This document shows positions 29,785 through 61,753 of a stretch of 64,000 nucleotides of DNA, piece after piece (within the stretch, counting starts at the first letter, position 1; each line of letters opens with the position of its first letter). Below the pieces are notes generated by a model that did no database searches, was not told where the DNA came from, and worked only from the letters and a program-made list of their open reading frames with translations. Position numbers and translations under genes: made by a program. This stretch comes from a virus, in the IMG/VR virus record IMGVR_UViG_3300043331_001086, positions 4,820 through 68,819 of that record; one strand, written 5' to 3'.

Positions 29785-30003
29785 GGGGCACCTCCGGGTG
29801 TCCGGATCGGGGGCCCACCATGTTAGCGCGCTGGGCCACGGTGGGGGTGGGTGTCCGGCTCCGGCCGGCGCGGTACTGTCCCCAACCGCTACCACGCGAA
29901 GCACCCCCCCGGATGGGCCAGGGGGGTGATCGACCAATGGAGGTGCTGTCTCCGTGGAACACTCTACTACCGCCGACCCTGTGACCTGCACCGGTCAACC
30001 GCT

Positions 30004-30783
30004 ATGACCGCCGGGGACGTGCAGCGAGTCCTCGACGGCTACCCCCACGGCGGCACCCGCAAGCTGATCCTCATCGGGATCGCGAATCACGACGGCGAGG
30101 GGGGCAGCTGGCCCGCGATCGAGACGCTCGCCAGCTACGCCGGAGTCACGCGCCGCAACGCCCAGAAGGCCATCCGGGTCCTCGAGGCCGAGGGGGTGCT
30201 GACCGTCGAGGCCAACGGTGGGGGCCACCGGAACACCCGGGCAGACCAGCGGTCGAACCTCTACGTGATCGACTACGACAGCCTCGGGGACGGGGTGTCG
30301 GTAGCGACACCTCGTACCGAACGGGGTGTCGCTGGCGACCCCAACGGGGTGTCGCTGGGGAGCCAACGGGGTGTCGCCACCGACGCGCGAACCCCCCAGA
30401 ACAAGAACAGAACCCCCCTACCCCTCGCGGGCCTGCCACCCATCCCTGACCGCGAGGGGCCAGACGGCGGACCGTACGCGCTGCGGATCATCGCGGAGCA
30501 ACGCTTCGAGAAGTGGTGGGAGGCCTACCCGAAACGCGACGGCAAACGCGTCGGTCGCGGAAAGTCCCACAAGATCTGGATGAGCCTCACGCCCGAGGAC
30601 CACGTGGCCGCGTGGAACGGCGTGCGCAACTACGCCCGGTCCGGGTGGCGGCCGAAGGACCCGGAGCGATGGCTCCGTGACCGATGCTGGGAGGAGTGGC
30701 AGGAGGCCGCGGTCCCGGACGGGCCCACCGGCAACGGCACCCAGGCCGTCGGCTACACCGGGCAGGGGCACTCATGGGCGTGA
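30004..30783 (+). CDS. replication initiator with N-terminal HTH
   Basis: KLILIGIANH..SWPAIETLA HTH; C-terminal FEKWWEAYPKR..P.RWL. Confidence 0.8.
   Translation: MTAGDVQRVLDGYPHGGTRKLILIGIANHDGEGGSWPAIETLASYAGVTRRNAQKAIRVLEAEGVLTVEANGGGHRNTRADQRSNLYVIDYDSLGDGVSVATPRTERGVAGDPNGVSLGSQRGVATDARTPQNKNRTPLPLAGLPPIPDREGPDGGPYALRIIAEQRFEKWWEAYPKRDGKRVGRGKSHKIWMSLTPEDHVAAWNGVRNYARSGWRPKDPERWLRDRCWEEWQEAAVPDGPTGNGTQAVGYTGQGHSWA
30290..30412 (+). repeat. iteron-like repeats, probable replication origin
   Basis: ACGGGGTGTCG at 30290, 30321, 30344 and 30366, followed by AGAACAAGAACAGAA. Confidence 0.7.
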
Positions 30784-32003: not shown

Positions 32004-32260
32004 TGCCCATGCCCACCGGACCCCGGCTCGTCGTGGAGTGGGCCGACGGCCAGCTGACCCAGCCCCTGCCCCTCCCCGCGGGGATGACCCCCTGCGAGTG
32101 GGTCGCCCGGCTCGGCGAGGTGCTCGGGCCCGACCGCCGGGTCGCGGCCTGGTCCGTGCACCCCGGGAACCCAGCGCGCTAATGTGGGTGGTGGTCGGGG
32201 GGTGACGGGTTGCGGCCGAGCCCCCTGGCCACCTCAACCCCTCGACGCCGTGGAGGCACG

Positions 32261-35301: not shown

Positions 35302-35552
35302 CATGGACCGAGGCCCGGCACGCGGCCCGTGTCACCACGGGCTCCCGGGACCCGCTACGTGCCGCCCTCGCGGCCTGGTGGGCCGAGCAGGGGTTCCCAC
35401 CCCTCGACCGCCTCACCGACGCCCAGGCGCACGCCGTGCTGGACGAGATCGCACGCATCGAGTGGTCCACCCGCCCGTTCACCCCCGACCCCGACCCCAC
35501 CCACTAACCTAAGCGCGCTGGTGTGACCCCCCAGCCCGAGAGAGGAGCCCCC

Positions 35553-36694: not shown

Positions 36695-38212
36695 ATGGCA
36701 GTGGCCGTCCGCCCCATCCCCACCGCCGGACCACACCGGCCCACCGTCGAGCAGACAGCGGTGATGGACCTGTTCAAGTCCGGCCGGGACATGGTGATCC
36801 AGGCTGGCGCGGGCACCGGCAAGACCACCACCCTCGGGATGCTGGCACGCACGACCTCGCGGCACGGGTGCTACGTCGCGTTCAACAAGAGCGCCGCCCA
36901 GGACGCCGACCGCGCCATGCCGGTCACCGTCCAGTCCTCGACCATGCACTCCCTCGCCTACCGGGCCCTCAACGCCGAGCTCGGCATCTGGCAACGGCTC
37001 AACGACGCGAAGCGGATGCCGTCGGCCCGGCTCGCTAAGCGCCTCGGGATCGGGCCCGTCCACGTGACGATCCCCGGGGCCCCGGTGAAGGTGCTCGCGC
37101 CCGCGCTCCTCGCCGGGCACGTCATGCGCGCCCTGCGCCGGTTCTGCGAGTCCGCCGCCGAGTCACCCGGCCCCGAGCACTTCCCGTACCTCCACGGGAT
37201 CGACGTCCACGACGCCGACGGCGTGCACGGGAACGTGAACAACCGCCAGCTGGCCTACCACCTCCTTGAGCCCCTCACGAAGGCCTGGGACGACGTGCGC
37301 GGCCCGGCGATGCTGGTGCCGTTCGCGCACGAGCACTACCTCAAGATCTGGCAGCTACGGAACCCCCAGCTGCCCGGCGAGTTCGTCCTGTTCGATGAGG
37401 CCCAGGACGCGAACGGCGTGATGCTCGCGGTCCTCGCCGCGCAGACCGGCAAGCAGATGGTCTACGTCGGCGACAGCCAACAGCAGATCTACGAGTGGCG
37501 GGGCGCGATCAACGCCCTCGACCAGTTCGAGGGGGAACAGCGGTGGCTGTCCCAGTCGTTCCGGTTCGGGCCCGCCGCGGCCGAGCTCGCGAACGTGATC
37601 CTCGCCCGCCTCGACTCCCCCCTGCGCCTGCGGGGCACCCCGTCCCTGGCGACCCGCGTCGGCCGGTGCGACCGGCCCCGGGCGGTGCTGTGCCGGTCGA
37701 ACGCCACGGCGGTGAACGTCCTCCTCGGCGTGCAGCGCGAGGGGCGCACCGGCCACCTGGTCGGCGGTGACCGGGAGTTGATCCGGTTCGCGACCGCGGC
37801 CGCGAAGCTGCAAGCCGGCGAGAAGGTGACGCACCCGGACCTCGCGTGCTTCGACTCGTGGCGCGAGGTGCAGGCCTACGTCGACCAGGACCCCGCCGGG
37901 GACGACCTCCGGATGATGGTCAAGCTCCTCGATGACTACGGCGTGCAGATCGTCCTCGACGCGCTCGACGGCGCGATCGGCGAGGACGGCGCGGACGTGA
38001 TCATCTCGACCGCGCACCGGGCGAAGGGGCGGGAGTGGCCGTCGGTCAGCCTGGCGACGGACTTCGACCCCCCACGCGACGGCGACGGGAACCGGCTCTG
38101 GGAGCTACAGGCCCCGGAGTGGCGGCTCCTCTACGTGGCCTGCACCCGGGCCCGGGAGGTGCTCGACATCACCCGGTGCGAGGCCGTGTCCGACCTGGCG
38201 GCGGGCCGATGA
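36695..38212 (+). CDS. UvrD/Rep-like SF1 helicase
   Basis: AGAGTGKT, DEAQD, VGD..QQIY.WRGA, SFRFG, STAHRAKGREW, YVACTRAR. Confidence 0.92.
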   Translation: MAVAVRPIPTAGPHRPTVEQTAVMDLFKSGRDMVIQAGAGTGKTTTLGMLARTTSRHGCYVAFNKSAAQDADRAMPVTVQSSTMHSLAYRALNAELGIWQRLNDAKRMPSARLAKRLGIGPVHVTIPGAPVKVLAPALLAGHVMRALRRFCESAAESPGPEHFPYLHGIDVHDADGVHGNVNNRQLAYHLLEPLTKAWDDVRGPAMLVPFAHEHYLKIWQLRNPQLPGEFVLFDEAQDANGVMLAVLAAQTGKQMVYVGDSQQQIYEWRGAINALDQFEGEQRWLSQSFRFGPAAAELANVILARLDSPLRLRGTPSLATRVGRCDRPRAVLCRSNATAVNVLLGVQREGRTGHLVGGDRELIRFATAAAKLQAGEKVTHPDLACFDSWREVQAYVDQDPAGDDLRMMVKLLDDYGVQIVLDALDGAIGEDGADVIISTAHRAKGREWPSVSLATDFDPPRDGDGNRLWELQAPEWRLLYVACTRAREVLDITRCEAVSDLAAGR

Positions 38213-39708
38213 CCGCCACCGTGACCGACCTGTTCTGCGGGGCCGGTGGGTCGTCGCTGGGTGCCGAGGCCGCGGGCATGGAACTCGTGATGGCGGCGAA
38301 TCACTGGCAGACCGCGATCGACGTCCACCAGGCCCATTTCCCCGAGGCGGGCCACGACTGCGCCGACGTGTCCCAGGCCGACCCGCGCCGCTACCCGGTG
38401 ACCGACATCCTGATCGCCAGCCCCGAGTGCACGAATCACTCACAGGCCCGCGGGGTGTCGCGCCGGGCCCAGCAGCCCTCCCTGTTCGAGGGCCCCGACC
38501 CCGCGGCCGAGCGGTCCCGGGCGACGATGTGGGACATCCCCCGCTTCGCCGAGCAGATCCCCTACACCGCGGTCATCGTGGAGAACGTGGTCGAGGCGAC
38601 CCGGTGGGTCGGGTGGCGCGCCTGGTGCCTCGCCATGGCGGACCTCGGCTACGACCGCCGGGTGCTGTCACACAACTCGATGCACCACGGGGTGCCCCAG
38701 TCCCGGGACCGGATCTACGTCGTGTTCACCCGGCGGGGCCTGGCCCCAGACCTCGACCTCGAGCTCGTGGCCCCGTGCCCGCGGTGTGGCGCGGACCGAC
38801 CGTGCCGCCAGGCATGGAAGCCGGACCGGTGGGTCGGCCGCTACGGCCAGCAGTACCGGTGGGCGTGCACCACCTGTGGGGCCGAGGTGGTCCCCGCCAC
38901 CGAGCCCGCCGCGTCGATCATCGACTGGGACCTCGACTGCCCACGGATCGGCCAGCGCACCCGCCCCCTCGCGCCGGCGACCCGCGCCCGGATCCTCGCC
39001 GGTCTGCAACGCTACGGGTGGGCCCCGGTGATCACCGCCGGGGCGGGGCACGTCTACGAGACGACCCCCGGCAACCGGGCCCGCCCGCTCACCGACCCCC
39101 TCGGCGTCCAGCACGCGACCGCCCACCACGCGCTCGCCTCCCCGCCGGGGTTCCTGTTCCAGACCGCCCACGGGGGCCGGGTGTCCGACCTCGAGCGGCC
39201 CCACCCGACAGTGTGCGCGTCCGACGACCGGCAGGCCCTGGTGATCCCCCTGCGCCGCCACGGTCACGCCCAGGACACCGGCCGCCCGGTGCCGACAGTC
39301 ACCGCGGGCGGGTTCCATCACGGCCTGCTGATGCGCAACAACGTCGGCGGCGCCGAGATGGTCACCCCGGTCACCGAGCCGGCGCGCACCCTCACGAGCA
39401 AGGGCCATCAGTCGTTGCTCGTCCCGTACAACGGGACCGGCCGGGCCATCCCCACCGAGCGGCCCCTCGGCACCCAGCCCTCACGGGATCGGTGGGCCCT
39501 GGTCGATCCCGACCGGGTGGTGGACGAGTGCGGGTTCCGGATGCTCGAACCCCACGAGATCGCGGCGGCCATGGCGTTCCCCGACGGCTACATCCCCGAC
39601 GCGCTCACGAAGCGCGACCGGGTGAAGCTGGCCGGGAACGCCGTCACCCCACCGGTGATGGTGTGGATCGCCGGCCGTGTCCTACAGGCAATGGAGGCAG
39701 CAGCATGA
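38209..39708 (+). CDS. C5 cytosine DNA methyltransferase
   Basis: DLFCGAGG, SPEC, ENV, QSRDR, GNAV. Confidence 0.95.
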   Translation: MTATVTDLFCGAGGSSLGAEAAGMELVMAANHWQTAIDVHQAHFPEAGHDCADVSQADPRRYPVTDILIASPECTNHSQARGVSRRAQQPSLFEGPDPAAERSRATMWDIPRFAEQIPYTAVIVENVVEATRWVGWRAWCLAMADLGYDRRVLSHNSMHHGVPQSRDRIYVVFTRRGLAPDLDLELVAPCPRCGADRPCRQAWKPDRWVGRYGQQYRWACTTCGAEVVPATEPAASIIDWDLDCPRIGQRTRPLAPATRARILAGLQRYGWAPVITAGAGHVYETTPGNRARPLTDPLGVQHATAHHALASPPGFLFQTAHGGRVSDLERPHPTVCASDDRQALVIPLRRHGHAQDTGRPVPTVTAGGFHHGLLMRNNVGGAEMVTPVTEPARTLTSKGHQSLLVPYNGTGRAIPTERPLGTQPSRDRWALVDPDRVVDECGFRMLEPHEIAAAMAFPDGYIPDALTKRDRVKLAGNAVTPPVMVWIAGRVLQAMEAAA

Positions 39709-40025
39709 CCTACCGGACCGGCGACCAGTGGATCGGCCGCATCGCCCGCTCGACCCCGCTCTCGTACGACGGGCTCACCGACCGGGGCGGGACGGTGGTC
39801 ATCACGTCGGACCTGTGGCCGAACATGCCCCTCCCCGGGAGCCGGGTGACAATCACCGTCGATGAGTTGCCCCCACGCTGGCAGACCGACACCGACTCGT
39901 CCGGGGACCTCTACCTGCTCTACGAGGGGACGCGCGTCGCCCAGCTGTATCTACCCCTCAAGGACGACGCCGCCGAGGTGCAGAAAGTGCTCGACGTCCT
40001 GAACGCGAAGGATCCCCGTGACTGA
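39705..40025 (+). CDS. hypothetical protein
   Basis: GGAGG RBS, ATGA overlap. Confidence 0.55.
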   Translation: MTYRTGDQWIGRIARSTPLSYDGLTDRGGTVVITSDLWPNMPLPGSRVTITVDELPPRWQTDTDSSGDLYLLYEGTRVAQLYLPLKDDAAEVQKVLDVLNAKDPRD

Positions 40026-40785
40026 CCTCCGCGACCACCTCGACGTCGCCCGGAAGGTGGTCGTCGGCCACCCCCTCTACGACGACCTCACCGACCTCCA
40101 CGCGCTCCGGATCTTCATGGACCACCACGTCTGGGCGGTCTGGGACTTCATGTCGCTGCTCACCGAGCTACAGCGCCGGGTCACCTGCACCACCGTCCCG
40201 TGGGTGCAACCCGCCGCGCCGGCGACCGCGGTCCGCCTGGTCAACGAGATCGTGCTCGGCGAGGAGTCCGACGACGTGCCCGGCTACGGGATCACCTCGC
40301 ACGTGGACCTCTACCGGGCCGCGATGCACGAGGCCGGCGCGTCGACCACCCCGCTCGACGCGTTCCAGGCTGCCGTACGGGTCGCCACGTTGCGCCCCCT
40401 GCGGCTCGCCGCCCTCGCGGGGGTACTGGGGGCCCCCCTCGGTGCCGAGCGGTTCCTGGCGGCCACCATGGCCGTGGTGCAGGCCGGGACCCTGGCCGAC
40501 ATCGTGGGCGCGTTCGCGTTCGGCCGTGAGCAGCTGATCCCCGACCTGTTCCGCCCCCTCCTCGCGAACCCCGCCGCCCGCCTGTTCGGGGTGTACCTCG
40601 AACGCCACGTCCTCATCGACGCCGAGGAGCACGGCCCCGCGGCCGAGCACCTGGTCGACAGCCTGCTCGCGTCGGCCGACCGTGAGCGTGCCTATCAGGC
40701 CGGGCTCGTGGCCCTCGGGGCCCGGTCCGAGCTCTGGTCCAGCGTGCAGCGCGCGATCCATGACGCCCGCCGGGTGGGTCAGTAG
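40018..40785 (+). CDS. DUF3050-like heme-oxygenase-fold protein
   Basis: FMDHHVWAVWDFMSLL, NEIVLGEESD, SH..LY..AM, FGRE.LIP, YLERH...D.EEHGP. Confidence 0.8.
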   Translation: MTDLRDHLDVARKVVVGHPLYDDLTDLHALRIFMDHHVWAVWDFMSLLTELQRRVTCTTVPWVQPAAPATAVRLVNEIVLGEESDDVPGYGITSHVDLYRAAMHEAGASTTPLDAFQAAVRVATLRPLRLAALAGVLGAPLGAERFLAATMAVVQAGTLADIVGAFAFGREQLIPDLFRPLLANPAARLFGVYLERHVLIDAEEHGPAAEHLVDSLLASADRERAYQAGLVALGARSELWSSVQRAIHDARRVGQ

Positions 40786-40795
40786 CGTTGCGGCG

Positions 40796-41488
40796 ATGAC
40801 CGACACCGACCGGCCCCCGCGGTGGCAGGAGTACCTGTCGCTGGACGAACTCCTCGAACGGCGCGACCCGCGCAACCCGAAGGACCACGCCGACCGCGAC
40901 ATCCGGAAGTCGATGGGCCGGTTCGGGTACACCGAGCCGGTCATGGTCGATGAGCGCACCGGGTTCCTCGTCGCCGGGCACGGCCGGGTCGACAACCTCG
41001 CGGCACGGCGCGCCGCCGGGGAGAACCCACCTGACGGGATCGTGGACCACCCCGAGCGCGGCTGGACGGTCCCCACGAACCGAGGCTGGGCGAGCCGGTC
41101 CGACGAGGAAGCCGCCGCCTACCTGGTGGCCGCGAATCAGCTGACCATCAAGGGCGGCTGGAAACCGGACCCCTTCGCCGCGATCCTCGCCGAGCTCCGG
41201 TCCACCGACACCGGGCTCGAGGGGATCGGCCTGTCACCCACCGAGGCCGCCGACATCCTCGCCGCGTACGGGCCCGTGCCCACGCTGGACGAACTCGCCG
41301 ACCAGATCGGTGACCCCGAGCCGGAGGACTTCTGGCCGGTCCTGCGGCTCAAGGTCTCACCGGAGACGAAGGCCGAGTTCGAGCGGTGGCTCGACACGAC
41401 CGGGCAGGTGACCGCGGGCGACGACGCCGTGATGGCCGGTCTCCTCCGGATCGCGACAGCGGCCCTGGCCGACGCGGAGACCTCGTGA
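40796..41488 (+). CDS. ParB/Srx N-terminal-like protein
   Basis: RNPKDH..SMGRFGYTEPV..LVAGHGR..YLVAANQL. Confidence 0.8.
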   Translation: MTDTDRPPRWQEYLSLDELLERRDPRNPKDHADRDIRKSMGRFGYTEPVMVDERTGFLVAGHGRVDNLAARRAAGENPPDGIVDHPERGWTVPTNRGWASRSDEEAAAYLVAANQLTIKGGWKPDPFAAILAELRSTDTGLEGIGLSPTEAADILAAYGPVPTLDELADQIGDPEPEDFWPVLRLKVSPETKAEFERWLDTTGQVTAGDDAVMAGLLRIATAALADAETS

Positions 41489-42423
41489 CGGCCCCGATCG
41501 CGGTCCTGCTCTCCTACCACTTCTGGCGGGACCTCGACCTCGATGAGGCCCTCGGCCTGTGGCCCGAGCACCCGCTCGTGTTCGCCGACTCGGGCGCGTT
41601 CTCCGCGTCGACCGTCGGCGCCGAGGTGGACGTGCACGCCTACGCCGAGTGGCTCGACCGGTGGCGCCACCACTTCGCCGTCGCCTGCACCCTCGACGTC
41701 ATCGGCGATGAGGTGGCGACCGAGACGAACACCCGGATCCTCGAAGGCCACGGCCATCGGGTGCTCCCGGTGTTCCACACGAACGAGCCCTGGGACTACC
41801 TCGAACGCCTGGTGGCCGAGTACCGGTACGTCGGGGTCGGGGGCATGGTCCCCTACAAGATGCGAGAGAAGGCGCTCCTGCGCTGGCTGGTGCAGTGCTT
41901 CCGGGTCGCCGAGGGGACCGGCACCGTGTTCCACGGGCTCGGGCTCACGAACCCCCGGATGCTGGCCCCCCTGCCCTTCTACTCGGTCGACTCGTCGTCG
42001 TGGTGCGCGGGCCTGATCTACGGCCGGATCCACCTCTACGACGGGCTCACCGGCAAGATCCGCCCGGTGCAGGCCGGGGACCGCGGCGCGCTCCTGCGCG
42101 GCGACGAGCTCCGGGCCGTCGGCCTCGACCCCTACGAGGTGGCGACCCCGTACTACGGCCGCCGGGACCCCGACGGCGAGAAGCCCGCCGAGGTGTACCG
42201 CCGGCAACACACCGAGGAAGGCGCCGCGAACCTCGTGGCCGCCGCGGCCCAGGCCGAGTGGTGGCACGCCCGCCACGCCCCCGTGTCCGTCGACGGGATG
42301 CCCGACGGCCCGGTCACGTTCCTCGTCGCGATCAACCCGATGGACCTCGGCCGGATCCGCCAGCACTTCTACCCGACCACCGACCAGGAGACACCCGCAC
42401 ATGGGACAGCTGCCCCCGCATGA
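41485..42423 (+). CDS. TGT/DpdA-like base-exchange transglycosylase
   Basis: DSGAFS, LDVIGD, PVFH, GGMVP, HGLG, SVDSSSW. Confidence 0.8.
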   Translation: MTAPIAVLLSYHFWRDLDLDEALGLWPEHPLVFADSGAFSASTVGAEVDVHAYAEWLDRWRHHFAVACTLDVIGDEVATETNTRILEGHGHRVLPVFHTNEPWDYLERLVAEYRYVGVGGMVPYKMREKALLRWLVQCFRVAEGTGTVFHGLGLTNPRMLAPLPFYSVDSSSWCAGLIYGRIHLYDGLTGKIRPVQAGDRGALLRGDELRAVGLDPYEVATPYYGRRDPDGEKPAEVYRRQHTEEGAANLVAAAAQAEWWHARHAPVSVDGMPDGPVTFLVAINPMDLGRIRQHFYPTTDQETPAHGTAAPA

Positions 42424-43015
42424 CCTCGACCCCTCGAAGCTCGAAGCCGGCACCCGGCTGATCCTCGAGGGGCTCGGCGTCGACCCCACCACCCACGACG
42501 AGGTGGTCGCGAACACCCCCCGCCGGGTGGCCGACCTCTACACCGAGATGATCAACCCCGCGTGGTGCGACGTGGACGAGGTGTTCAAGACCTTCGAGCC
42601 GCCCGAGGCCTGGCGCACCGGCGACATGGTGATGGTCCACGACGTCCACTACGTGTCGATGTGCGAGCACCACCTCGCCCCCAGCTTCGGCGTCGCGCAC
42701 GTCGCGTACATCCCAGACCTCAAGGTCGTCGGCTACTCGAAGCTCAAGAAGGGGCTCAACTACGTCGCCCGCGGACCCCAGCTGAACGAGCGCATCCTCG
42801 CCGACACCCTCGACATCATCGAGAAGCAGGTCGAGCCGAAGGGGTGCGCGCTCGTGTTGCAGTCGACGCACTGCTGCATCGCGCTCCGCTCCTCGGCGCC
42901 GTCACAAGAGGTGGTGACGGTGCAAGGGTTCCGCGGTGACCTCGCCACCGACCCCTGGCGACGGGAGTTCACCGACACGCTGATCGGTCGGAAGCCCCTG
43001 TTCCTCGGGGCGTGA
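42401..43015 (+). CDS. folE: GTP cyclohydrolase I (divergent)
   Basis: TPRRVA, SMCEHH, AYIP..VVG.SKL, Q.NER, H.C zinc ligands. Confidence 0.9.
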   Translation: MGQLPPHDLDPSKLEAGTRLILEGLGVDPTTHDEVVANTPRRVADLYTEMINPAWCDVDEVFKTFEPPEAWRTGDMVMVHDVHYVSMCEHHLAPSFGVAHVAYIPDLKVVGYSKLKKGLNYVARGPQLNERILADTLDIIEKQVEPKGCALVLQSTHCCIALRSSAPSQEVVTVQGFRGDLATDPWRREFTDTLIGRKPLFLGA

Positions 43016-43170
43016 TGCCACATGGAGCGTCGAGTCAGCGCGCTGGGTAGCTTGCGCCCATTGGGGGCCACAGCGCTCTGTGGGCCGCTGGGGGGTCTCC
43101 CGGGTGTAACGACCCATCGGACACCTCGGGAGCGCATAAGTCCTGCCCAGCCCGGGTGTGGAGGGGGTCT

Positions 43171-43461
43171 GTGATGGTCGGTGGCGGGTTCCTCCGGATC
43201 GGCGACAACGGCCAGGCCCAGCACCCCCACACGCTCGAGGACGCGCTCTGGCTCGCGCTCCGGCAGTGCGCCACCCACTCGGCCGGACCTCTCGCGACCG
43301 TCGCCCGGCTGATCGACGCGACCCACGAGGGGATCCTCGACCCGGCCGAGCTCGCGGCCGCGATCCGGACCCGGCTCGACGCCGCGGACATGCCCGCCGA
43401 CCGTCGCCGGGTGGCCGAGGCGTTCCTCGAAGCCCTGTTCGATGGGACGCTCGCCCGATGA
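43171..43461 (+). CDS. hypothetical helical protein
   Basis: GGAGG RBS; coupled to the LOG gene. Confidence 0.5.
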   Translation: MMVGGGFLRIGDNGQAQHPHTLEDALWLALRQCATHSAGPLATVARLIDATHEGILDPAELAAAIRTRLDAADMPADRRRVAEAFLEALFDGTLAR

Positions 43462-43916
43462 CGACCCGCTTCGGTCCCCTCGTCGCGGTCGTCGGCAAGG
43501 GACGCGACTGCCCGGCCGACGTTGTGAACGCCGCCGCGATCGTCGGCCACGAACTCGGCCGTGCCGGCGTCACCCTCCTCACCGGCGGACTCGGCGGCGT
43601 GATGCTGTCGAGCGCGTGCGCGGCCCACGCCGTCGGCGGCCTGGTCGTCGCGCTCCTGCCGCTCGAGGAGGAATGCCTCCCCCCGGCCAACCTCGTGATC
43701 CGGACGGGCCTGTCCCACACCACCCGGAACGTGATCATGGGCACCGCCTGCGACGCGCTCATCGCGCTCGACGGTGGGCCGGGGACCATGCAAGAGGTGG
43801 CCGTCGCCTCCGAGCGCGGAGTGCCGGCCGTCCAGGTGGACACCGACCGGTGGCCACTCCCCCGCATCAGCTACTCGGAGGTGCAGTCATGGGCGAGCAA
43901 GGTCACGAGCAAGTAG
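43458..43916 (+). CDS. LOG/SLOG family protein
   Basis: TGGLGGVM, RNVIM..CDALIAL.GGPGTMQE. Confidence 0.85.
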   Translation: MTTRFGPLVAVVGKGRDCPADVVNAAAIVGHELGRAGVTLLTGGLGGVMLSSACAAHAVGGLVVALLPLEEECLPPANLVIRTGLSHTTRNVIMGTACDALIALDGGPGTMQEVAVASERGVPAVQVDTDRWPLPRISYSEVQSWASKVTSK

Positions 43917-44440
43917 TCGTCGGCTGGGCCGAGGTGACCGTCCTCGCCAGGGCCGTCGCCGCGACCATCCGCGAGACCACCCGCGACATCGAGGCCGGAC
44001 CCGTCGAGGGGATCTACGGCATCCCCCGCGGTGGGTGTGTCCCGGCCGCGCTCATCGCCGGCATGACCGAGATCCCCCTCGTGGAGGCCCCCGGCCCGAC
44101 GGTGTTCGTGGTCGATGACCTCGTGGACTCGGGCCGCACCGCGAAGGACGTCCTGTCCGGCTACCCACAGGTGGCCGGGTTCCGGGCCCTCTACTGCAAG
44201 TCCTGGTCACCCCCCGATCTCACCGCCGGCGCGGTCGTCACCCCCGGCGACCCGTGGCTCGTGTTCCCGTGGGAGGCCCGGGAAATGGCCGCCCAGGACG
44301 CCGTGGTGCGCCTCATGCAGGCAGGGGGGGTGGACACCACCGACCCCGGCGTGGAGCCCGTAGCGGCCGCCCTGGCCGGTGTCCTGCCCAGCCACGTCGC
44401 ATCCCTGGTCGGGGCGTGGCCCGGGGTCGCGATCCAGTAG
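43889..44440 (+). CDS. purine-type phosphoribosyltransferase
   Basis: GIPRGG, VVDDLVDSGRT, WLVFPWE. Confidence 0.85.
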   Translation: MGEQGHEQVVVGWAEVTVLARAVAATIRETTRDIEAGPVEGIYGIPRGGCVPAALIAGMTEIPLVEAPGPTVFVVDDLVDSGRTAKDVLSGYPQVAGFRALYCKSWSPPDLTAGAVVTPGDPWLVFPWEAREMAAQDAVVRLMQAGGVDTTDPGVEPVAAALAGVLPSHVASLVGAWPGVAIQ

Positions 44441-44488
44441 CTATTGGACGTGCGTCGACCCTGCTAGTCGGCGAACTTCCCGGAACGC

Positions 44489-44517
44489 TTGCCACCCCAG
44501 CACAGCGCGCTTAGGTT
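44489..44517 (+). promoter_or_regulatory. strong sigma-A-like promoter
   Basis: TTGCCA-N17-TAGGTT, with AGCGCGCT in the spacer. Confidence 0.75.
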
Positions 44518-44519
44518 GG

Positions 44520-44925
44520 TCCCCGTTAGGAAGTTCCCCCCCAGGAGTGGGGGAGCGAGGGACACGGTGGTAGGCCCCCACGGGGAGCATGAGCCACCCC
44601 CGACCAGCACCAGGTGAGGGTAGCCTTCGGAGGGGCCCGGTGACCGCCACGGAAGTGGGTAGCGGTGGGCGGGACGAGGGGTCACATCCTCGCGAAACCG
44701 ACCACTTCCGACAGACGCAAGCGAGCAAGCAGCGGTTCTCAACACTCCACCGCACGGGCCCGACCTCACCGTCGGGCCCTGCTCGCGCTCACCACCCCCC
44801 GAGCCTTACCTCGACCAGCCAGGCACCGGGCACCTACCACGCGCAGCGACCGTGGAGCGGCCCACCTGGTGTCCCGAGACGGCCGAGGTTGGGTGGTGGG
44901 CGCGAGCAGGGAGGTTCCCTGTGCA
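44520..44925 (+). ncRNA. candidate structured RNA or long 5' leader
   Basis: no credible CDS; multiple stems including a 21-bp stem (44777-44797 with 44891-44911); cTTCGg and GNRA-like sequences. Confidence 0.45.
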
Positions 44926-44945
44926 TCAACCCCGTGGAGGACACG

Positions 44946-45404
44946 ATGAGCACCACGACGAAGTTCGCGACGATGGACGAGGCCCTCGAGGCCTACAAGG
45001 CTGGCGGCAAGGACCGCGGGCTGGTGATCGAGCAGGCGAAGGCCGAGCACGACGCCGTCAAGAAGGCGAAGGCCAGCAAGAAGCGGGCCCCCGCCACCCC
45101 GGCACTCGAGGCCGTCAACAAGGCCAACGAGCTCGGCCTGAACCGCACGAAGTCCAGCAAGGGCACCGGGTCCGGTGGCCGAGCGGTGCGGTTCTCCGAC
45201 ACCGAGTTGGTCGAGATGGTCAAGTCGGCCGTGCAGGCCGGCGAGGCCAGGACGGCCGGTGGGTGCGTCAAGCACTTCCGGGCCATCGGCAAGGGCTCGA
45301 ACGAGAAGCGGGTCAAGCGTGCCTGGGATGCGGCGATCGCCGCGGGCATGACCGTCCCCGAGAAGCCCAGCCAGTCCACCGAGGACACCCCCTCGGAGTC
45401 GTGA
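44946..45404 (+). CDS. Lys-rich hypothetical protein
   Basis: strong RBS; basic composition suggests nucleic-acid binding. Confidence 0.75.
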   Translation: MSTTTKFATMDEALEAYKAGGKDRGLVIEQAKAEHDAVKKAKASKKRAPATPALEAVNKANELGLNRTKSSKGTGSGGRAVRFSDTELVEMVKSAVQAGEARTAGGCVKHFRAIGKGSNEKRVKRAWDAAIAAGMTVPEKPSQSTEDTPSES

Positions 45405-45519
45405 ACCGCCCGCCCTGCCCCCCTCGGGGGGCGGGGCTCGCGGGGCTCATCCGGTACCGCCGGGTGGTCCCCGCGAGCCTCCGAGGTTCGGAGTGACTCA
45501 ACCCCGTGGAGGGAATGCC

Positions 45520-46497
45520 ATGACTGCTTACTTCGATTGCGGATTCTCAGTGCGTCAGCCCGCGTGGCACGGCGAAGCCACCATCCTTGACGAGTACCCC
45601 GAGACGTGGGACGAGGCCAGGATGGCCGCCGGGCTGATGTGGGAACCGGCCGAGCAGAAGCTGTACGTGCCGGGGCCCGAGGGCACGTTCGTTCCGGTCG
45701 ACGGCTTCAAGGCCATCACCCGGGATGACACGGGCGAGGTGTTGGCCACCACGACCGACACGTTCTCGCTGATCACCCACGCAATGATGGGGGAGATCAT
45801 CGAGGCCGTCATCGGCGAGGCCAACGTCAAGTTCGAGACGGCCGGGTCACTCCGGTCGGGCAAGTCCGTGTGGGCGCTGGTCCGGCTGGACGAGCCCTAC
45901 ACGGTGCCGGGCGACGACAGCCCGATCTACCCGTTCCTCGCACTGCTCAACCCCCACGACGGTACCGGGGCCTGCAAGGCCACCTTCACCGACGTGCGGG
46001 TGATCTGCTGGAACACCTGGCAGGCCGCCGAGCAGCGCGCCGAGCGGGACGGGACGTCGTTCTCGTTCCGACACGTGGGCACCCCGGCCGACCGGATCGC
46101 TGAGGCGAAGGGCGCGCTGGCCCAGCTGCGGGACAACTCCCGGGCCCAGGCCGATACGTTCGCCGCCCTGGCGAAGGTGCCCGTCAACGACGAGCAGGTG
46201 CTCACCTTCACCGAGTTGTTCCTGCCGAGCCCCCGGGACACCGGCGAGCTCTGCTCGGACCGGGTGCAGGCCAACGTGGACCACGCCCGAGGCGTGTTCC
46301 GCCGCCTGTACGACGAGTCGGTGACGACCGAGGGGATCCGGGGCAGCGCCTACGGACTCCTGCAGGCCAGCACCGAGTACCTCGACCACGTGCGCCGGTT
46401 CCAGACCCGTGACACCTACGTCGGCCGGACGGTGCTGCGCGCCGAGCCCCTCAAGGCGAAGGCCCTGGCACTCATCGGTGAGGTGACCGGCAACTGA
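45520..46497 (+). CDS. DUF932 family protein
   Basis: PAWHG, FETAGSL..GK.VW, N.HDG, RVICWNT, RH. Confidence 0.85.
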   Translation: MTAYFDCGFSVRQPAWHGEATILDEYPETWDEARMAAGLMWEPAEQKLYVPGPEGTFVPVDGFKAITRDDTGEVLATTTDTFSLITHAMMGEIIEAVIGEANVKFETAGSLRSGKSVWALVRLDEPYTVPGDDSPIYPFLALLNPHDGTGACKATFTDVRVICWNTWQAAEQRAERDGTSFSFRHVGTPADRIAEAKGALAQLRDNSRAQADTFAALAKVPVNDEQVLTFTELFLPSPRDTGELCSDRVQANVDHARGVFRRLYDESVTTEGIRGSAYGLLQASTEYLDHVRRFQTRDTYVGRTVLRAEPLKAKALALIGEVTGN

Positions 46498-46623
46498 GAT
46501 CCCGCCGAAGCGTCGGGTCCGGGCGAGCCGCCCCTCGTCCGGACCTGGCGTGCGCCTCCCCGACCCCAGGCCGGGTGGGCGCACGCTGGGAGGTTCCCGG
46601 CAGTCAACCCCGTGGAGGGCACC

Positions 46624-46857
46624 ATGCCCGCGAACACCCGCTACGTCCTGCTCAAGCGCCAGTGGCGCGCCGGCCGTTGGGTCACCGAGTACGAGGTGAC
46701 CGACCGGCTCATCGACACGCCCGACTCGGCGCTCGCGTGCTACACCGTCGAGCATCACAGGGGCCGACAGGCTGACGTGGTGGCGACCGTGCTCGAGTGG
46801 GAGGCCCGAGGCCGCCCCCGGGACATGGCCGTCCGACGGCGGTGGCCCGCTGCGTGA
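46624..46857 (+). CDS. hypothetical protein
   Basis: preceded by the start-associated repeat. Confidence 0.6.
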   Translation: MPANTRYVLLKRQWRAGRWVTEYEVTDRLIDTPDSALACYTVEHHRGRQADVVATVLEWEARGRPRDMAVRRRWPAA

Positions 46858-47045
46858 TCCCCAGTCAGGGCCCGGCCAGCGTTGCCCGGGCCCTGCACGG
46901 GGGGCTTGACCTGGTGGGGCGCCCGCCGGGTTGAGCCCCCCGTGCAGGGAGACTCCCTGCAACCCGCGCACGACGGTGGGGGGGCCCGGTCTGGCAAGTG
47001 CCGGACCTCCCCACCTCGTGAACATCAACCCCGTGGAGGACAGCC

Positions 47046-47240
47046 ATGCCCCGACCCTTCTCGCCCACGGACCTCGACAGCCCGCTCATCGGGCTGCTCG
47101 ACCAGACCGTCAGCTACAGCGACGACGGCCAGGTCCGAGAGGGCGTGCTCAAGAACGTCCAGCAGGACGGGATGGTGACCATTGCCGACGACGACGGGAT
47201 CGTCGTCGCGGTGGTCCCGGTCGCGAACGTGGTCACATGA
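47046..47240 (+). CDS. hypothetical protein
   Basis: preceded by the start-associated repeat. Confidence 0.6.
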   Translation: MPRPFSPTDLDSPLIGLLDQTVSYSDDGQVREGVLKNVQQDGMVTIADDDGIVVAVVPVANVVT

Positions 47241-47542
47241 CCACGCCCGTGATCGCCGAGTTCACCGACGACCAGCGCCGCACCCTCGGCTACTGGTCCA
47301 ACACCGTCCGACCCCCGCGGTCGGCGCGCCGGCTCGACGCCCGGACGTTCGTGTCCGAGTGCAAGTCCGTCGAGGTGACCCTCCACGAGGGCCACGCCTC
47401 GGACGGGTACAAGTCGGACTTCCGGCGGGTCGTCAAGTGGTGGGTGGTCATCTCGATCACCGATCACGCCACGACCTACCGGCGAGGCCGCCGGTTCTCG
47501 TCCGTGGCGAAGGCCCGCGCGTACTACGGGGAGGTGACATGA
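47237..47542 (+). CDS. hypothetical protein
   Basis: ATGA overlap. Confidence 0.55.
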   Translation: MTTPVIAEFTDDQRRTLGYWSNTVRPPRSARRLDARTFVSECKSVEVTLHEGHASDGYKSDFRRVVKWWVVISITDHATTYRRGRRFSSVAKARAYYGEVT

Positions 47543-47777
47543 CCTGCCCGATCTGTGGCGCCGAGCGGCCCGAGGAGGTGCACCTCGACTGGTGCACCTA
47601 CGACGGCCCCGAGCCCGACGAGGACGACGACTGACGCGTTCGCGGATCGGAGGCGCCGTCCCCCTCCGGCACCTCCGATCCCGCGGTGGCTCGCCCGCCC
47701 GTACAAACTGCCGTGCGGCGGGACGGGCGGGCCACCGCGGGAAGGCCCCGCACTCAACCCCGTGGAAGGACAGACCG

Positions 47778-47960
47778 ATGACCACGAAGGCTCAGGCCCG
47801 CCGGAAGCACCGCCCCACGACGGGCCCGGTCGGCGCCCACACCATCACCCGCGACCGGTACATCGCCGCCGAGCTCCTGCGCGACGCGCAGCACCCCGGC
47901 CGGTACCGCCCCGAGTACGTCGCCGCGCTGCGACGGATCCAGAGTCGGGGCGGGCAGTGA
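47778..47960 (+). CDS. hypothetical protein
   Basis: preceded by the start-associated repeat. Confidence 0.6.
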   Translation: MTTKAQARRKHRPTTGPVGAHTITRDRYIAAELLRDAQHPGRYRPEYVAALRRIQSRGGQ

Positions 47961-48163
47961 GCCTCGCCTCGGACCTCGCGGACGTGCTCGGCGAGGCCGG
48001 ATGCGACGCGTCGACCGTCGACCACCTCGACGGTCGGGCGTGGCACACCGCCCTGCAGCTGGTGCAGGTCCGCCGAGGCCGGCGACCCAGCCATCACTAC
48101 ATCGTGCCGAGCGACTCGACCCAGGCCGCAGCGACCGCGATCTTGCGTCGAGCGCGCCCCTGA
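47957..48163 (+). CDS. hypothetical protein
   Basis: GTGA overlap. Confidence 0.5.
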   Translation: MSLASDLADVLGEAGCDASTVDHLDGRAWHTALQLVQVRRGRRPSHHYIVPSDSTQAAATAILRRARP

Positions 48164-48190
48164 TCGCCCTTCCACGGGGGCGCAACCGTG

Positions 48191-48231
48191 GGAGCCCCCC
48201 AGGTCAGCCGGACAGGCGCCTGGGGGGCTCC
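48191..48231 (+). terminator. hairpin terminator
   Basis: GGAGCCCCCCAGG..CCTGGGGGGCTCC 13-bp stem followed by TGCGCGTC, the same tail as the 26225 hairpin. Confidence 0.65.
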
Positions 48232-48268
48232 TGCGCGTCTCCGGTCGGCCGGGGTACTGTCACACCCC

Positions 48269-48943
48269 ATGGCGAAGCGTTCGGGCCCAGGGCGGCCACC
48301 CAGAGACCCGTACGGGATTGTGGACTACCGCGCCGTCCCCCAGGACGACGGGACCATCGTGCGGGAACCCGTCACCGTGATCGACCGGGTGGAGGAGGCC
48401 CTGCGACAGAACGGGTTCATCCACGACGCGGCTGGTCGGTCGGGGCTCGCCGTCGAGACCCTCCGACAGTGGCGGGCGAAGGGGGTCCGGGCGAACGCCG
48501 ACATCCTCGCCGGGCGCCGCCGGCGCGCCGACCTCGACACCCACGAACGCCGGTGCGCCGAGCTTGCGACCCGCATGGAACGCGCCGAGGCCGACGCCCG
48601 TCTGTCCCTTCTCGCCGTCACCTCGGCCCTGGCCCGCGGCGGACTCGAGGTGGTCCACACCACCGAGAAGCAGAACGCCGGTGGCGACGTCCTCGAGAAG
48701 GTGGTCCGGACCTCGCGGTCGCTGCCCGACAGCCACGCCGCGACGTGGCTCCTCGCCCACCGGTACCCGGCGGACTTCGCTGGCCGGGTCGAGGTGACCG
48801 GGCCCGACCGGGGTCCGATCGAGGTGGCCGTGTCCCCCGTCGATCAGCTGCTCAACGCGATCAACGCGGTCCGCGAACGACGGGACGGCGTGTCCTCGAA
48901 CGGTGACACCCCGGCCCCGGCGGGCAACGGTGCACACGGGTAG
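48269..48943 (+). CDS. putative terminase small subunit
   Basis: GRPP, HTH-like segment, AATWLLAHRYP.DF..RVEVTGPDRGPIEV. Confidence 0.7.
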   Translation: MAKRSGPGRPPRDPYGIVDYRAVPQDDGTIVREPVTVIDRVEEALRQNGFIHDAAGRSGLAVETLRQWRAKGVRANADILAGRRRRADLDTHERRCAELATRMERAEADARLSLLAVTSALARGGLEVVHTTEKQNAGGDVLEKVVRTSRSLPDSHAATWLLAHRYPADFAGRVEVTGPDRGPIEVAVSPVDQLLNAINAVRERRDGVSSNGDTPAPAGNGAHG

Positions 48944-48977
48944 GTCCTCGAAGCGCAAACAGGAACCGGTTACCCTT

Positions 48978-49394
48978 GTGCCCGTGCGCACGATCGCCGT
49001 GACCGATCTTCTCGACCTCAGCTTCCGGCAGGTGGACTACCTGTGCCGGAGCGGCGCGATCGACCCTGAGCTCGTGGGCGGCGGCCAGGGGTGCGGCAGC
49101 CGCCGGGTCTGGCCCCCCGAGGTGGTGGCCCGGCTCGAAGTCGCGCTCGCGCTGTGGCGCGCCTGCCCGACCGTGGACACCGGCCAGCCGGGTGGCCCGG
49201 TCTGGACCAGCCTCGTGCGGGCCGTCATGGACAATCCCGTCGACCCCCCGTGGGCCGGGTGGGTGGTCCTCGATGACCTCGGCCAGGTCCACTACGGGTC
49301 CGACGACGCCGAGCGCGGCCGGATCCTCGGCCGGGTCGACGGCGCGCTCGTGGCCCGCTACGTGCTCCGCTCCCCCACCGCACCAGCGCGCTAA
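48978..49394 (+). CDS. MerR-like HTH protein
   Basis: LSFRQVDYL.R.G.I.P..G.GSRRVW; start uncertain. Confidence 0.65.
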   Translation: MPVRTIAVTDLLDLSFRQVDYLCRSGAIDPELVGGGQGCGSRRVWPPEVVARLEVALALWRACPTVDTGQPGGPVWTSLVRAVMDNPVDPPWAGWVVLDDLGQVHYGSDDAERGRILGRVDGALVARYVLRSPTAPAR

Positions 49395-49433
49395 CATGGT
49401 GGGGCCCCATCGACCCCCTCGGAGGTGCCCGCC

Positions 49434-49691
49434 ATGTCCTACTCACAGACCCTCACCGACGCCGCGCTGATCAACCGGATGCGTCGGCTTGAGGCCTGGT
49501 CTCTCGTGGCCCTGCTCGTGTTCCTGGTCGCGCTGGCCGTCGCCTGGTACGCCTACTCGTTCGGCGCGCTGATCGCCGCGGTCATCGCGCTGGCGGTGCG
49601 CGCCGAGCTCGAACGCCTGGCCCGCGCCGGGCTCGCCGAGGCCCAGTCCCGCGGGCTGGCGCGACTCCTCGCCCGCAAGGCCGACGCGTGA
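49434..49691 (+). CDS. membrane protein
   Basis: two TM segments; GGAGG RBS. Confidence 0.6.
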   Translation: MSYSQTLTDAALINRMRRLEAWSLVALLVFLVALAVAWYAYSFGALIAAVIALAVRAELERLARAGLAEAQSRGLARLLARKADA

Positions 49692-52570: not shown

Positions 52571-52640
52571 TCCCGGCGGGCCGGTACCCAGCGCGCTAAC
52601 ATGGCCCTTGCACCCCCGACCTCAACCCCAGGAGGACACG

Positions 52641-57914: not shown

Positions 57915-58828
57915 CCACCGTCACCGGCCGGACCTACACGGCCACCCGCCCCCGCGGACTCGCGTCGTGGAGCCCCCAGGCCCACACCCTCAACCTGCTC
58001 CGGCAGGTCAACGAGGTGCTCGCCGAGTACGCCGACCACCTCCCGCTCACCGCCCGCCAGATCTTCTACCGGCTGGTCGGCCGGTACGGCTACGACAAGA
58101 CCGAGGCCGCGTACAACCGGCTCCTCGAAGCCCTCAACCGGGCCCGCCGAGCCGGGTACATCCCGTGGGACGCGCTGCGTGACGACGGCACCGTGTCCGC
58201 CGAGCCGAACGCGTGGCGGGACCCGGACCACTTCTGGGCCGCGGTGCGTGGCACCGCCGACCGGTACGTCCATGACCTCCTCGACGGCCAGGCCACGATC
58301 GTGGAGGTGTGGGTCGAGGCCGCCGGCATGGTCCCCCAGATCGCGCGGGTCGCTCACGAGTACGGGATCACCGTGTTCTCGGCCGGGGGGTTCAACTCGG
58401 TGACCGAGAAGCACGACGCCGCGCTGCGGATGGTGCGCCGGTCCCGGGAGGGGCAGGACACCCTCGTACTCCACGTCGGGGACCACGATCCGTCGGGGTG
58501 CGCGATCGTGGACTCGGCCGCCGAGGACATCACGGCGTTCTGCGAGGACTACGGCCAGCCCTTCGCTGTCGAGTTCGAGCGCATCGCGGTGACCCCCACC
58601 CAGATCGAGACGTTCGACCTCGCGACGGCCCCGCAGAAGCGGACCGACCAGCGCGGCGAGCACATGGCTGAGACCGTGCAGGCCGAGGCCCTCGCCCCCG
58701 ACCAGATGGCCGACGCGGTGCGCGCCGCGATCGAGGACGCCATCGACGCCGACGCCATGCTCCACGCCCGGCACCTCGGGCAGACCGAACGCGACGCCAT
58801 CCTCGAGCACCTCGACGGTGTGGCGTGA
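57911..58828 (+). CDS. Topo VI-A/Spo11-like TOPRIM protein
   Basis: LTARQIFYRLV, VEVWVE, GGF.S, GDHDPSG, ERIAVT..QI. Confidence 0.75.
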   Translation: MTTVTGRTYTATRPRGLASWSPQAHTLNLLRQVNEVLAEYADHLPLTARQIFYRLVGRYGYDKTEAAYNRLLEALNRARRAGYIPWDALRDDGTVSAEPNAWRDPDHFWAAVRGTADRYVHDLLDGQATIVEVWVEAAGMVPQIARVAHEYGITVFSAGGFNSVTEKHDAALRMVRRSREGQDTLVLHVGDHDPSGCAIVDSAAEDITAFCEDYGQPFAVEFERIAVTPTQIETFDLATAPQKRTDQRGEHMAETVQAEALAPDQMADAVRAAIEDAIDADAMLHARHLGQTERDAILEHLDGVA

Positions 58829-61146: not shown

Positions 61147-61753
61147 CCATCATCGGCCGCCTCGATGGGACGGTCCGGGTCGTGCTGGACACGGTGACCG
61201 CGACCCCGGAGCTCCGGATGCTGTTGGCCGAGGCGGGCCGCCCGGACCTCGCGGACGCGTTGCAGTACGCCGGTGTGGGGTCGACGGACTCGTTCCTCCT
61301 GTGGGCGGCGGGTGTGGAGCAGCCCCCGCCGCCGGTGGTGTGGAAGGCCGTCGACCTGTTCCGCCTCAAGCGGTTCCCGAACCGGGAGGAGACCCCGTGA
61401 CCCCTGACACTGCGATCGCGGTGGCGGCCCGTGACCTGGCTGCGACCGACGAGATGCTCGAACACCACTCGTCCACCTGTGACACGGATCCGTGCACGAC
61501 CTGTCTGGTCTGGTCTCACCGGGCGGCGGCAGCCTGGGCCCTTCTCCGCGCCCGGATCGCCGAGGCCGACGCCGGACCCCCGTTCACCGAAACCCCCCAC
61601 CGGGACGACACGATCACCGTCGAGGGCGGCTTCGCGGCCCCGTTCACCCCCGATCCAGTGGACGGCGAACCCCTCCCACCCCCCAATGCAAACACCCGCG
61701 GGATCTACCGGCCCGGCTGGGCCCACCAGGTCACAGGACTCCCCAACGGATAG
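61143..61753 (+). other. two small hypothetical ORFs (61143-61400, 61397-61753)
   Basis: GTGA overlaps and RBS. Confidence 0.5.

Follow-up and report, generated by a model that had tools for sequence, protein, structure and literature searches.

A non-coding gap in an uncultured soil phage looks like gene-control sequence and holds the first of five repeated hairpin-and-motif modules

The virus record IMGVR_UViG_3300043331_001086 of the IMG/VR collection represents an uncultured soil phage known only from metagenomes. The record is 68.8 kilobases (kb) long with 72% guanine plus cytosine (GC) and is estimated to be 95% complete. Its positions 4820-68819 form the window analysed here, a stretch of 64 kb whose own numbering is used below. 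Genes were called by the GC content of third codon positions (GC3), which yielded 99 genes, nearly all of them on the + strand. The subject of this study is the gap 44441-44945 of 505 nucleotides (nt), the longest non-coding run in the window. Its left edge is the stop codon TAG (44438-44440) of a phosphoribosyltransferase-like gene (43889-44440, +), also a GC3 call, and it ends at the ATG of a gene for a protein of 152 amino acids (aa) (44946-45404, +; GC3 0.95). The gap contains a promoter-like site, a non-coding leader and, at its 3' end, three hairpins followed by a motif next to the start codon; hairpins and motif recur in the same order before the next four genes. This arrangement looks like gene-control sequence rather than one large folded RNA or a new class of large RNAs.

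None of 27 sliding windows across the gap is coding-like. A previous sequence-only reading of this DNA had described the region as non-coding, with an open reading frame (ORF) at 44589-45404 as the potential objection. The upstream part of this frame indeed lacks a codon-position signal, as GC at the three positions amounts to 0.69/0.68/0.72 in 44589-44945 compared to 0.60/0.52/0.95 in the gene itself (44946-45401). All 99 called genes have a GC3 of at least 0.87, a value that no codon phase in the gap attains. Searches by tblastn with the open frames of gap and leader gave a best hit of E 0.8. A translated region or pseudogene was considered and rejected, since a 271-aa open frame matched a 222-aa protein of a relative only at E 0.23 and codon-position GC is flat. 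The same reading had found no resemblance to tRNA, tmRNA or RNase P, and this stands: ARAGORN returned 0 tRNA or tmRNA genes and Rfam 15 at the gathering score 0 matches in the whole window, while Rfam in E-value mode on 44300-48400 gave five matches, all with E of at least 0.18 and far under gathering. A replication origin, a packaging site and a mobile element were also discarded: there are no iterons and no AT-rich stretch in the gap, and an insertion is hard to reconcile with similar hairpins in four more gaps.

The 3' part of the gap is the first copy of a module that precedes five consecutive + strand genes in a constant order: a GC-rich hairpin A, a long hairpin B, a small hairpin C and the 15-nt motif TCAACCCCGTGGAGG. 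All five motifs are on the + strand, 5, 7, 5, 6 and 9 nt before the ATG in copies 1-5, respectively, and contain the Shine-Dalgarno sequence GGAGG (GGAAG in copy 5). The 14-nt core CAACCCCGTGGAGG is exact at 44927, 45499, 46605 and 47026 and carries one mismatch at 47755. When up to two mismatches are allowed, the window holds 9 matches to the core versus 1.63 expected, a number reached by none of 100 shuffles; beyond the five sites, the whole record contains no further copy.

In copy 1, hairpin A (44756-44779, +) pairs GGGCCCGAC with GTCGGGCCC through 9 G-C-rich pairs around a 6-nt loop, with no U-tract behind it. Hairpin B (44777-44911, +) has a base stem (44777-44797 / 44891-44911) of 20 Watson-Crick pairs and one G.U, which is the stem of 21 base pairs (bp) with a single G-U pair (T.G at 44789) that had already been noticed, and encloses an interior of 93 nt. 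Hairpin C (44907-44921, +; CAGGGA-GGT-TCCCTG) has five bases in common with the 3' arm of B, and the motif (44926-44940, +) stands 5 nt before the ATG at 44946. Copy 2 (45405-45519, +) comprises A at about 45412-45437, B at 45435-45479, C at 45479-45493 and the motif at 45498-45512, ahead of the ATG (45520) of a DUF932 gene. Copy 3 (46498-46623, +) has A at about 46512-46547, B at 46548-46586, C at 46586-46600 and the motif at 46604-46618, with the ATG at 46624. Copy 4 (46858-47045, +) is made up of A (46859-46902), B (46891-46949), C (46944-46960), one extra hairpin and the motif (47025-47039), followed by the ATG at 47046. In copy 5 (47635-47777, +), A lies at 47644-47681, B at 47679-47742, C at 47737-47751 and the motif, with its one mismatch, at 47754-47768 before the ATG at 47778.

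The arms of hairpin B measure 21, 20, 18, 28 and 22 nt in copies 1-5 and are 83-95% complementary. These stems have little sequence in common between copies, yet all of them pair, and copy 1 differs only by its 93-nt interior, compared with 3-20 nt elsewhere. The 28-nt arms of copy 4 contain 4 mismatches, every one of them G.U on the + strand; over the B stems together, mismatches are G.U on this strand nine times and A.C twice. Inverted repeats of this kind are rare, the window containing only 7 with 18-nt arms, at most two mismatches and a loop of 3-100 nt, 3 of them in the gaps of this operon. For hairpin C, 29 of 30 cells are paired across the five copies (96.7%) and 4 of the 6 pairs are changed on both sides, a covariation that 0 of 500 shuffles equalled and that slid controls remained far below. 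Hairpin A begins roughly 7-15 nt past the preceding stop codon in gaps 2-5 and past 230 nt of non-coding RNA in gap 1. The folding z-scores on the + and - strands are -3.64/-2.21 for copy 2, -3.11/-2.23 for copy 3, -6.77/-3.65 for copy 4 and -4.83/-3.29 for copy 5; over the five gaps they range from -3.1 to -6.8 (+) versus -2.2 to -3.7 (-) and are more negative on the + strand in every case. The + strand G.U mismatches, the covariation of hairpin C and the more negative + strand z-scores together favour a module that acts as + strand RNA. No T-run terminator pattern occurs in 43500-46000 or in 46000-49500, and none of the hairpins is followed by a U-tract.

Hairpin B of copy 1 also contains the GTG start of a 26-codon frame (44869-44949, +), 11 nt past a GGAG within a partial duplicate of the motif (CCGTGGAG). 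The frame ends in an ATGA overlapping the start of the gene at 44946 and could be a coupling upstream ORF; its GC3 is not coding-like and such ATGA overlaps are common by chance.

Folding stability is very unevenly distributed over the gap. As a whole, the + strand has a z-score of -3.36 (0 of 100 shuffles as stable), and the presumed transcript 44524-44945 one of -2.68 (1 of 100). With the minimum free energy (MFE) regressed on GC, the gap ranks 36th among 424 equal-size windows of the genome, the most structured stretches of which lie just downstream, at 45.0-47.3 kb. That the region is more structured than shuffled sequence holds for its 3' 199 nt (44750-44948; z -5.80, 0 of 200 shuffles as stable) and fails for its 5' 237 nt (44520-44756; z -0.23, 77 of 200). 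Similarly, 120-nt windows reach z-scores of -3.9 to -4.6 only where the hairpin at 44756-44779 is included, those in the leader giving -0.8 to +0.9. Only the last ~170 nt (44756-44921) are thus structured beyond chance. The proposal of a single structured non-coding RNA (ncRNA) of about 400 nt is therefore not supported: the structured portion is a cis module with four paralogues and no gene in its own right.

The complementary segments on which this proposal had been built do exist, namely CGGAAGTGG (44650-44658) with CCACTTCCG (44702-44710), GTGGTAGGCCCCC (44567-44579) with GGGCACCTACCAC (44828-44840; 85% complementary) and CACCAGGTG (44608-44616) with CACCTGGTG (44863-44871), as does CCTTCGG near 44625. 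The pseudoknots or alternative folds that they had been taken to imply are another matter. When the 21-bp stem and hairpin A are masked, the gap holds 8 complementary 8-mers and 2 9-mers, the means for shuffles of the unmasked gap being 6.4 and 2.3; long-range complements of 8-9 nt are at or near chance level for a GC-rich 500-mer. Moreover, the interior of the long stem folds as an imperfect extension of this stem (z -2.11, a stability equalled by 10 of 200 shuffles, MFE frequency 0.32) and not as an open loop, so that there is no need for pseudoknots. Between the 5' part and the stem interior there is a modest excess of complementarity when tested post hoc (9 7-mers versus a mean of 2.35, reached in 7 of 1000 shuffles), and the duplex energy of the two, a test likewise made after the pattern had been seen, was reached in 23 of 500 shuffles.

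The non-coding 5' leader of about 230 nt (44524-44755, +) is G-rich over its first ~180 nt and C-rich over its last ~55 nt, the GC skew being +0.10 to +0.17 and then -0.33. Its G-rich portion includes a canonical G-quadruplex pattern, GGG-N7-GGG-N1-GGG-N4-GGGG (44666-44690, +), of a sort that is common in 72% GC DNA. Two candidate pairings of the leader were rejected: that of an anti-motif at 44575-44585 with the start motif is at chance level (reached in 76 of 500 shuffles), and a segment resembling the 3' arm of B, which would act as an antiterminator, is about as frequent as expected by chance according to a rough estimate.

Upstream of the leader lies the promoter-like sequence TTGCCA-N17-TAGGTT (44489-44517, +), with TTGCCA at 44489-44494, a 17-nt spacer and TAGGTT at 44512-44517. 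It is present as the sequence-only reading had it and is the sole site on either strand of the 64 kb in which TANNNT follows, across a spacer of 16-19 nt, a hexamer that agrees with TTGACA in 5 of its 6 positions, the sigma-70-like criterion applied here. It is correctly oriented within the longest non-coding gap. Its spacer and -10 hexamer are overlapped by the box ACAGCGCGCTTA (44502-44513, +), which belongs to a repeated element: with up to one mismatch, CCAGCGCGCTWA has 9 matches in the window versus 0.31 expected. Seven of these are in gaps or at gene ends, at 29823-29834 (-), 32171-32182 (+), 35510-35521 (-), 43035-43046 (-), 44502-44513 (+), 49383-49394 (+) and 52588-52599 (+), and the copies mostly precede a TANNNT hexamer. 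From the position of the -10 element, transcription would start near 44524. Gaps 2-5 contain neither the box nor a sigma-70-like site, and the simplest reading is hence that the five genes share the promoter at 44489. They would form one transcription unit that runs from about 44524 to about 48190, where there is a strong hairpin; further candidate start signals come next near 48255 and 49383.

The box is often extended to CCAGCGCGCTAACATGGTGGG and flanked by CCCACC...GGTGGG; in this form it looks like a palindromic operator placed over a -10-like TAACAT. Its copies at 29823 (-) and 49383 (+) have in common a short leader up to GGAGGTGCC ahead of the start codon. A second repeated promoter-like element, seen by eye at 29872-29880 and 48252-48260, reads ...CCGG.TC.GGCCGG..GGTACTGTC, with TACTGT as a possible -10. 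One of its copies precedes the rightward gene at 30004 and the other the gene at 48320, directly after the strong hairpin that closes the five-module run.

None of the isolate phages is closely related to this one. Blastn of 44300-45100 against 50,697 phage records, Cluster A included, gave no match, and no match was found in 185,579 species genomes. The closest DUF932 proteins are 62% identical in one IMG/VR contig, at most 53% in metagenome contigs and at most 38% in isolate phages; neither the flanks of these relatives nor their whole records contain anything that resembles the gap. For the terminase, the nearest relatives are only 31-33% identical. The 15-nt motif gave 90 single hits in viral contigs and multiple copies in none of the records, which was taken as chance, and a search with the 17-nt box gave one hit, in an unrelated contig of 62% GC. 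In two soil metagenome runs belonging to different studies, contigs span parts of the gap without a single difference and hence offer no variants by which to test the pairs. They indicate that the sequence did not arise as an error of a single assembly, unless one of the two runs is itself the source sample, which may be the case.

As to the surroundings, the product of 43889-44440 matches the PHROG phosphoribosyl transferase family (E 2.7e-11) and, weakly and below the cut-off, Pfam Pribosyltran. Upstream of the gap are replication and nucleotide or DNA-modification genes, including those for a DnaB-like and a UvrD-like helicase. The run that adjoins the gap (38209-44440, +) encodes a C-5 cytosine methylase, a DUF3050 protein, GTP cyclohydrolase I, a DprA-like protein and the phosphoribosyltransferase-like protein, which suggests modification of phage DNA or nucleotides. 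On the other side, the 152-aa product matches no family in Pfam or PHROG and no phage record by tblastn. Its gene is followed by the DUF932 gene and several small genes without family; further on come a weak match to a terminase small subunit at 48320 and the large terminase at 51146. An uncalled 31-codon ORF at 47539-47634 (+), with a CxxC...C pattern and a GC3 of about 97% by hand count, starts in an ATGA shared with the stop of the gene before it. It probably represents a genuine small gene for a zinc-ribbon protein, which puts the left edge of gap 5 at 47635. Two further 'gaps' of the gene caller, 35302-35552 and 61401-61919, have windows with coding-like GC3 and are probably missed genes; by eye, both encode a ...RPFTPDP... 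/ ...PPFTETP... stretch and they are possibly paralogues. Nested inverted repeats of 22-30 nt at 30286-30395 (+), inside an HTH_36 gene (30004-30783) that adjoins the DnaB-like helicase gene, are a candidate replication origin within an initiator gene. In phage lambda, the replication origin lies inside the initiator gene.

With moderate confidence, the 505-nt gap can be read as the control region of an early operon that extends over about 3.7 kb (44.5-48.2 kb), together with its 5' leader and the first of its intercistronic modules. A host-type promoter, TTGCCA-N17-TAGGTT, would start transcription near 44524, and the first ~230 nt of the RNA would adopt no special fold. The RNA would then form the first of five modules, consisting of A, B with its arms of 18-28 nt, C and the motif UCAACCCCGUGGAGG, whose ribosome-binding site is located 5-9 nt before the AUG. 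The modules would act on the RNA: the U-less hairpins A and B may damp transcription, or else serve as double-strand processing and 3'-end stabilising sites that divide the polycistronic RNA into single messages. Hairpin C and the motif would provide each cistron with the same translation-start context, probably read by one factor. The data directly show that the gap is non-coding, how it is built, that the module occurs five times and that hairpin C covaries, whereas promoter activity, transcript ends, processing or attenuation and a binding factor are inferred. For A and B, processing, 3'-end stabilisation or partial attenuation is the favoured role. An RNase that acts on double strands could use stems of 18-28 bp, and an RNase III-type site requires about two helical turns. 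The B stems have the length of such an intercistronic site, and nothing promoter-like lies between the five genes.

Several observations weigh against this reading of the gap as promoter, leader and RNA module. Shuffled sequence contains a mean of 1.09 sigma-70-like sites, at least one being found in 65 of 100 shuffles, and a stricter sigma-70 scan did not list the site at 44489; since such a match is no rarer than chance, the support for a promoter comes from its location and from the repeated box that it overlaps. The + strand folds are more stable than the - strand folds in only 3 of the 5 gaps, and when the A stems are included, G.U mismatches outnumber A.C by 9 to 4 (p 0.27). The covariation was seen among just five paralogues, 15-mers picked because they form hairpins, and is supportive rather than proof; no collection searched holds a homologous gap. 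GGGTGG recurs in the 3' arms of B, at 17-21 nt (measured by eye) from hairpin C, a distance that neither fits nor fully excludes a promoter at the DNA level. No run on record as RNA holds the gap stretch, and the reading leaves the role of the unstructured ~230-nt leader unexplained. Finally, hairpin clusters near stop codons have been proposed as U-less terminators (PMC8355165).

The likeness to these terminators of high-GC bacteria (PMC8355165, PMC3993855) is confined to gaps 2-5, where two to three adjacent GC hairpins lie within 80 nt past a stop codon and lack U-tracts. The cluster of gap 1, in contrast, follows no gene. A canonical intrinsic terminator combines a GC hairpin with a U-tract, and only the former is present here. 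Stems of 18-28 bp are longer than the usual terminator stems. In vitro, hairpins that lacked a U-tract caused no termination by mycobacterial RNA polymerase (PMC3993855).

Another parallel to the layout proposed above is found in coliphage T7. Its early region has one or more host-type promoters, a leader of several hundred nt (about 400), a polycistronic early RNA and a long irregular hairpin, the RNase III site, before each gene, the first one in the leader. The order of promoter, leader and hairpin before each gene is alike, whereas there is no sequence relation and the host belongs to a different phylum. T7 is not known to have a conserved start-associated motif.

With regard to the motif, the nearest comparison is with the start-associated sequences (SAS) of Cluster K mycobacteriophages (PMC3203893). 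In both cases non-structural genes have, a few nt ahead of their ATG and always in the same orientation, a short asymmetric motif with a Shine-Dalgarno core. The motif has conserved positions that pairing with rRNA does not explain and is preceded in some copies by inverted repeats just upstream. The placement typical of SAS, a Shine-Dalgarno core in one orientation 3-7 nt before a mostly ATG start, has its counterpart here in five copies out of five on the + strand, at 5-9 nt. The 13-bp Cluster K consensus GGGATAGGAGCCC, as given in PMC3203893 and PMC12699233, has 2 matches in the window with up to two mismatches versus 2.31 expected, neither of them at the five motif sites. Furthermore, the five copies form a single run of 3.4 kb as opposed to the 11-19 copies over half a genome in Cluster K. 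There the extended SAS has imperfect 17-bp inverted repeats of conserved sequence, while here arms of 18-28 nt have copy-specific sequence and their pairing is kept. Pairing as RNA was judged to be poorly supported for the repeats of Cluster K, whose authors preferred a role in binding of protein to the DNA (PMC3203893). The motif behaves like a Cluster K SAS yet is not a member.

A different emphasis is possible, in which the product that matters is a discrete stable ncRNA of about 260-390 nt. Transcripts from 44489 would mostly end or be trimmed at A and B and accumulate early, with a minority reading on into the genes; this overlaps the operon-leader reading and differs in which product matters. 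The closest precedent comes from the mycobacteriophages L5, D29 and StarStuff, in which the early lytic promoter Pleft is immediately followed by a ~500-bp non-coding region that gives rise to an abundant stable RNA. About 90% of the transcripts end before the first genes and are processed into species of 100-400 nt, as seen by RNA-seq and Northern blots (PMC5712189). The layout is the same here: in an actinobacterial phage, a non-coding stretch of ~500 nt separates a putative early promoter from the early genes. The gap is the longest non-coding run in the window, and its leader of about 230 nt occupies the slot filled by a gene in the other four units, such that hairpin A follows non-coding RNA as if this had replaced a gene. 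However, there is no sequence similarity to the Pleft region nor to any other phage record, those of Cluster A included; the 3' part of the gap belongs to a repeated module, none being described for L5 in the pertinent part of PMC5712189. The 5' 237 nt, which would make up most of such an RNA, do not fold beyond chance, hairpins A and B have no U-tract behind them, complementarity of the leader to the start motif does not exceed that of shuffles, and the stretch is missing from the runs on record as RNA. A stable RNA as the main product is rather unlikely.

It is also conceivable that the modules work as DNA. Each would be a cassette of a terminator (A and B) and a gene-specific phage-type promoter (B 3' arm, GAGGTT and motif), giving five separate units, and the stem in the gap would merely end the leader transcript. 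The nearest relative, IMG/VR contig L006, lends this some weight, as it has a small gene and then the DUF932 gene (62% identity), with a hairpin as well as a repeated control element of 70-90 nt ahead of each. Its repeat is TTGCAC-N17-TAACGT inside an inverted repeat (GTTACCGCG...CGCGGTAAC), followed by a conserved leader; it looks like a sigma-70-like promoter with operator at the DNA level, differs in sequence from the module studied here and is not composed of three hairpins. Copies are found at 3095-3185 and 3915-4003 in L006 and at 9859-9930, 10663-10753, 19129-19191 and 58581-58621 in G001:C1, at least four of them on the same strand. The relative's leader (ATCACC..ACCCCGACACAC.GGAG) faintly resembles the start motif. 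Phages of this group thus seem to make regular use of repeated control cassettes, which differ in nature. In our window, GAGGTT is kept in hairpin C of 3 of the 5 copies and resembles the -10 hexamer TAGGTT at 44512, and GGGTGG is recurrent in the B 3' arms. On the other hand, no sigma-70-like pair of hexamers occurs there, the spacing of the conserved blocks varies by up to 4 nt, and the compensating changes in the flanks of hairpin C point to pairing rather than to protein contacts with fixed bases. The motif itself lies at ribosome-binding distance, its 5-9 nt varying in the manner of Shine-Dalgarno spacing. We consider DNA cassettes quite improbable.

Alternatively, the 5' part may have no function of its own and be a spacer or the remnant of a lost gene, in which case only promoter and module would matter. 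It has no structure beyond chance and neither repeats nor iterons, and in gaps 2-5 the module directly follows a gene. Nevertheless, none of its frames shows a remnant of similarity to a protein, it is part of the longest non-coding run in the window although the genomes of phages are compact, and the sequence is identical in contigs of the two soil runs, with the proviso made above for one of them; a functionless 5' part is very unlikely. Least credible of all is an option that the sequence-only reading had named, a cis-acting RNA for processive antitermination, in which part of the leader, suitably placed upstream of the first cluster, would modify RNA polymerase to pass the hairpin clusters of all five gaps that separate the one promoter from downstream genes: the leader has no fold beyond chance and no Rfam family, the E. 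coli boxA consensus (PMC13753749), which is not actinobacterial, has 8 matches with up to three mismatches in the window and 0 in 44441-44945, and hairpins without U-tracts may need no antitermination.

The lesson from the gap is that a long GC-rich stretch rich in complements is mostly chance, and that the real signal amounts to one long stem and one hairpin of a repeated cis module. A bolder version of the preferred reading, which we think unlikely, makes the five modules a post-transcriptional regulon specific to the phage. In it, an RNA operator composed of hairpin C and UCAACCCCGUGGAGG would be read by a single factor of phage or host origin, which would jointly set processing and translation of the five early cistrons. 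The leader RNA of ~260-390 nt, released at the first module, would build up early as a stable species and have a separate role, e.g., titrating that factor. If true, this regulon would be the RNA-level counterpart of the unexplained Cluster K start-associated sequences. Motifs of this start-associated kind have been known from actinobacterial phages since 2011 with no mechanism established. The motif described here is a different one, and its covarying paired hairpins point to an action on RNA; its five copies offer a compact system for testing such motifs.

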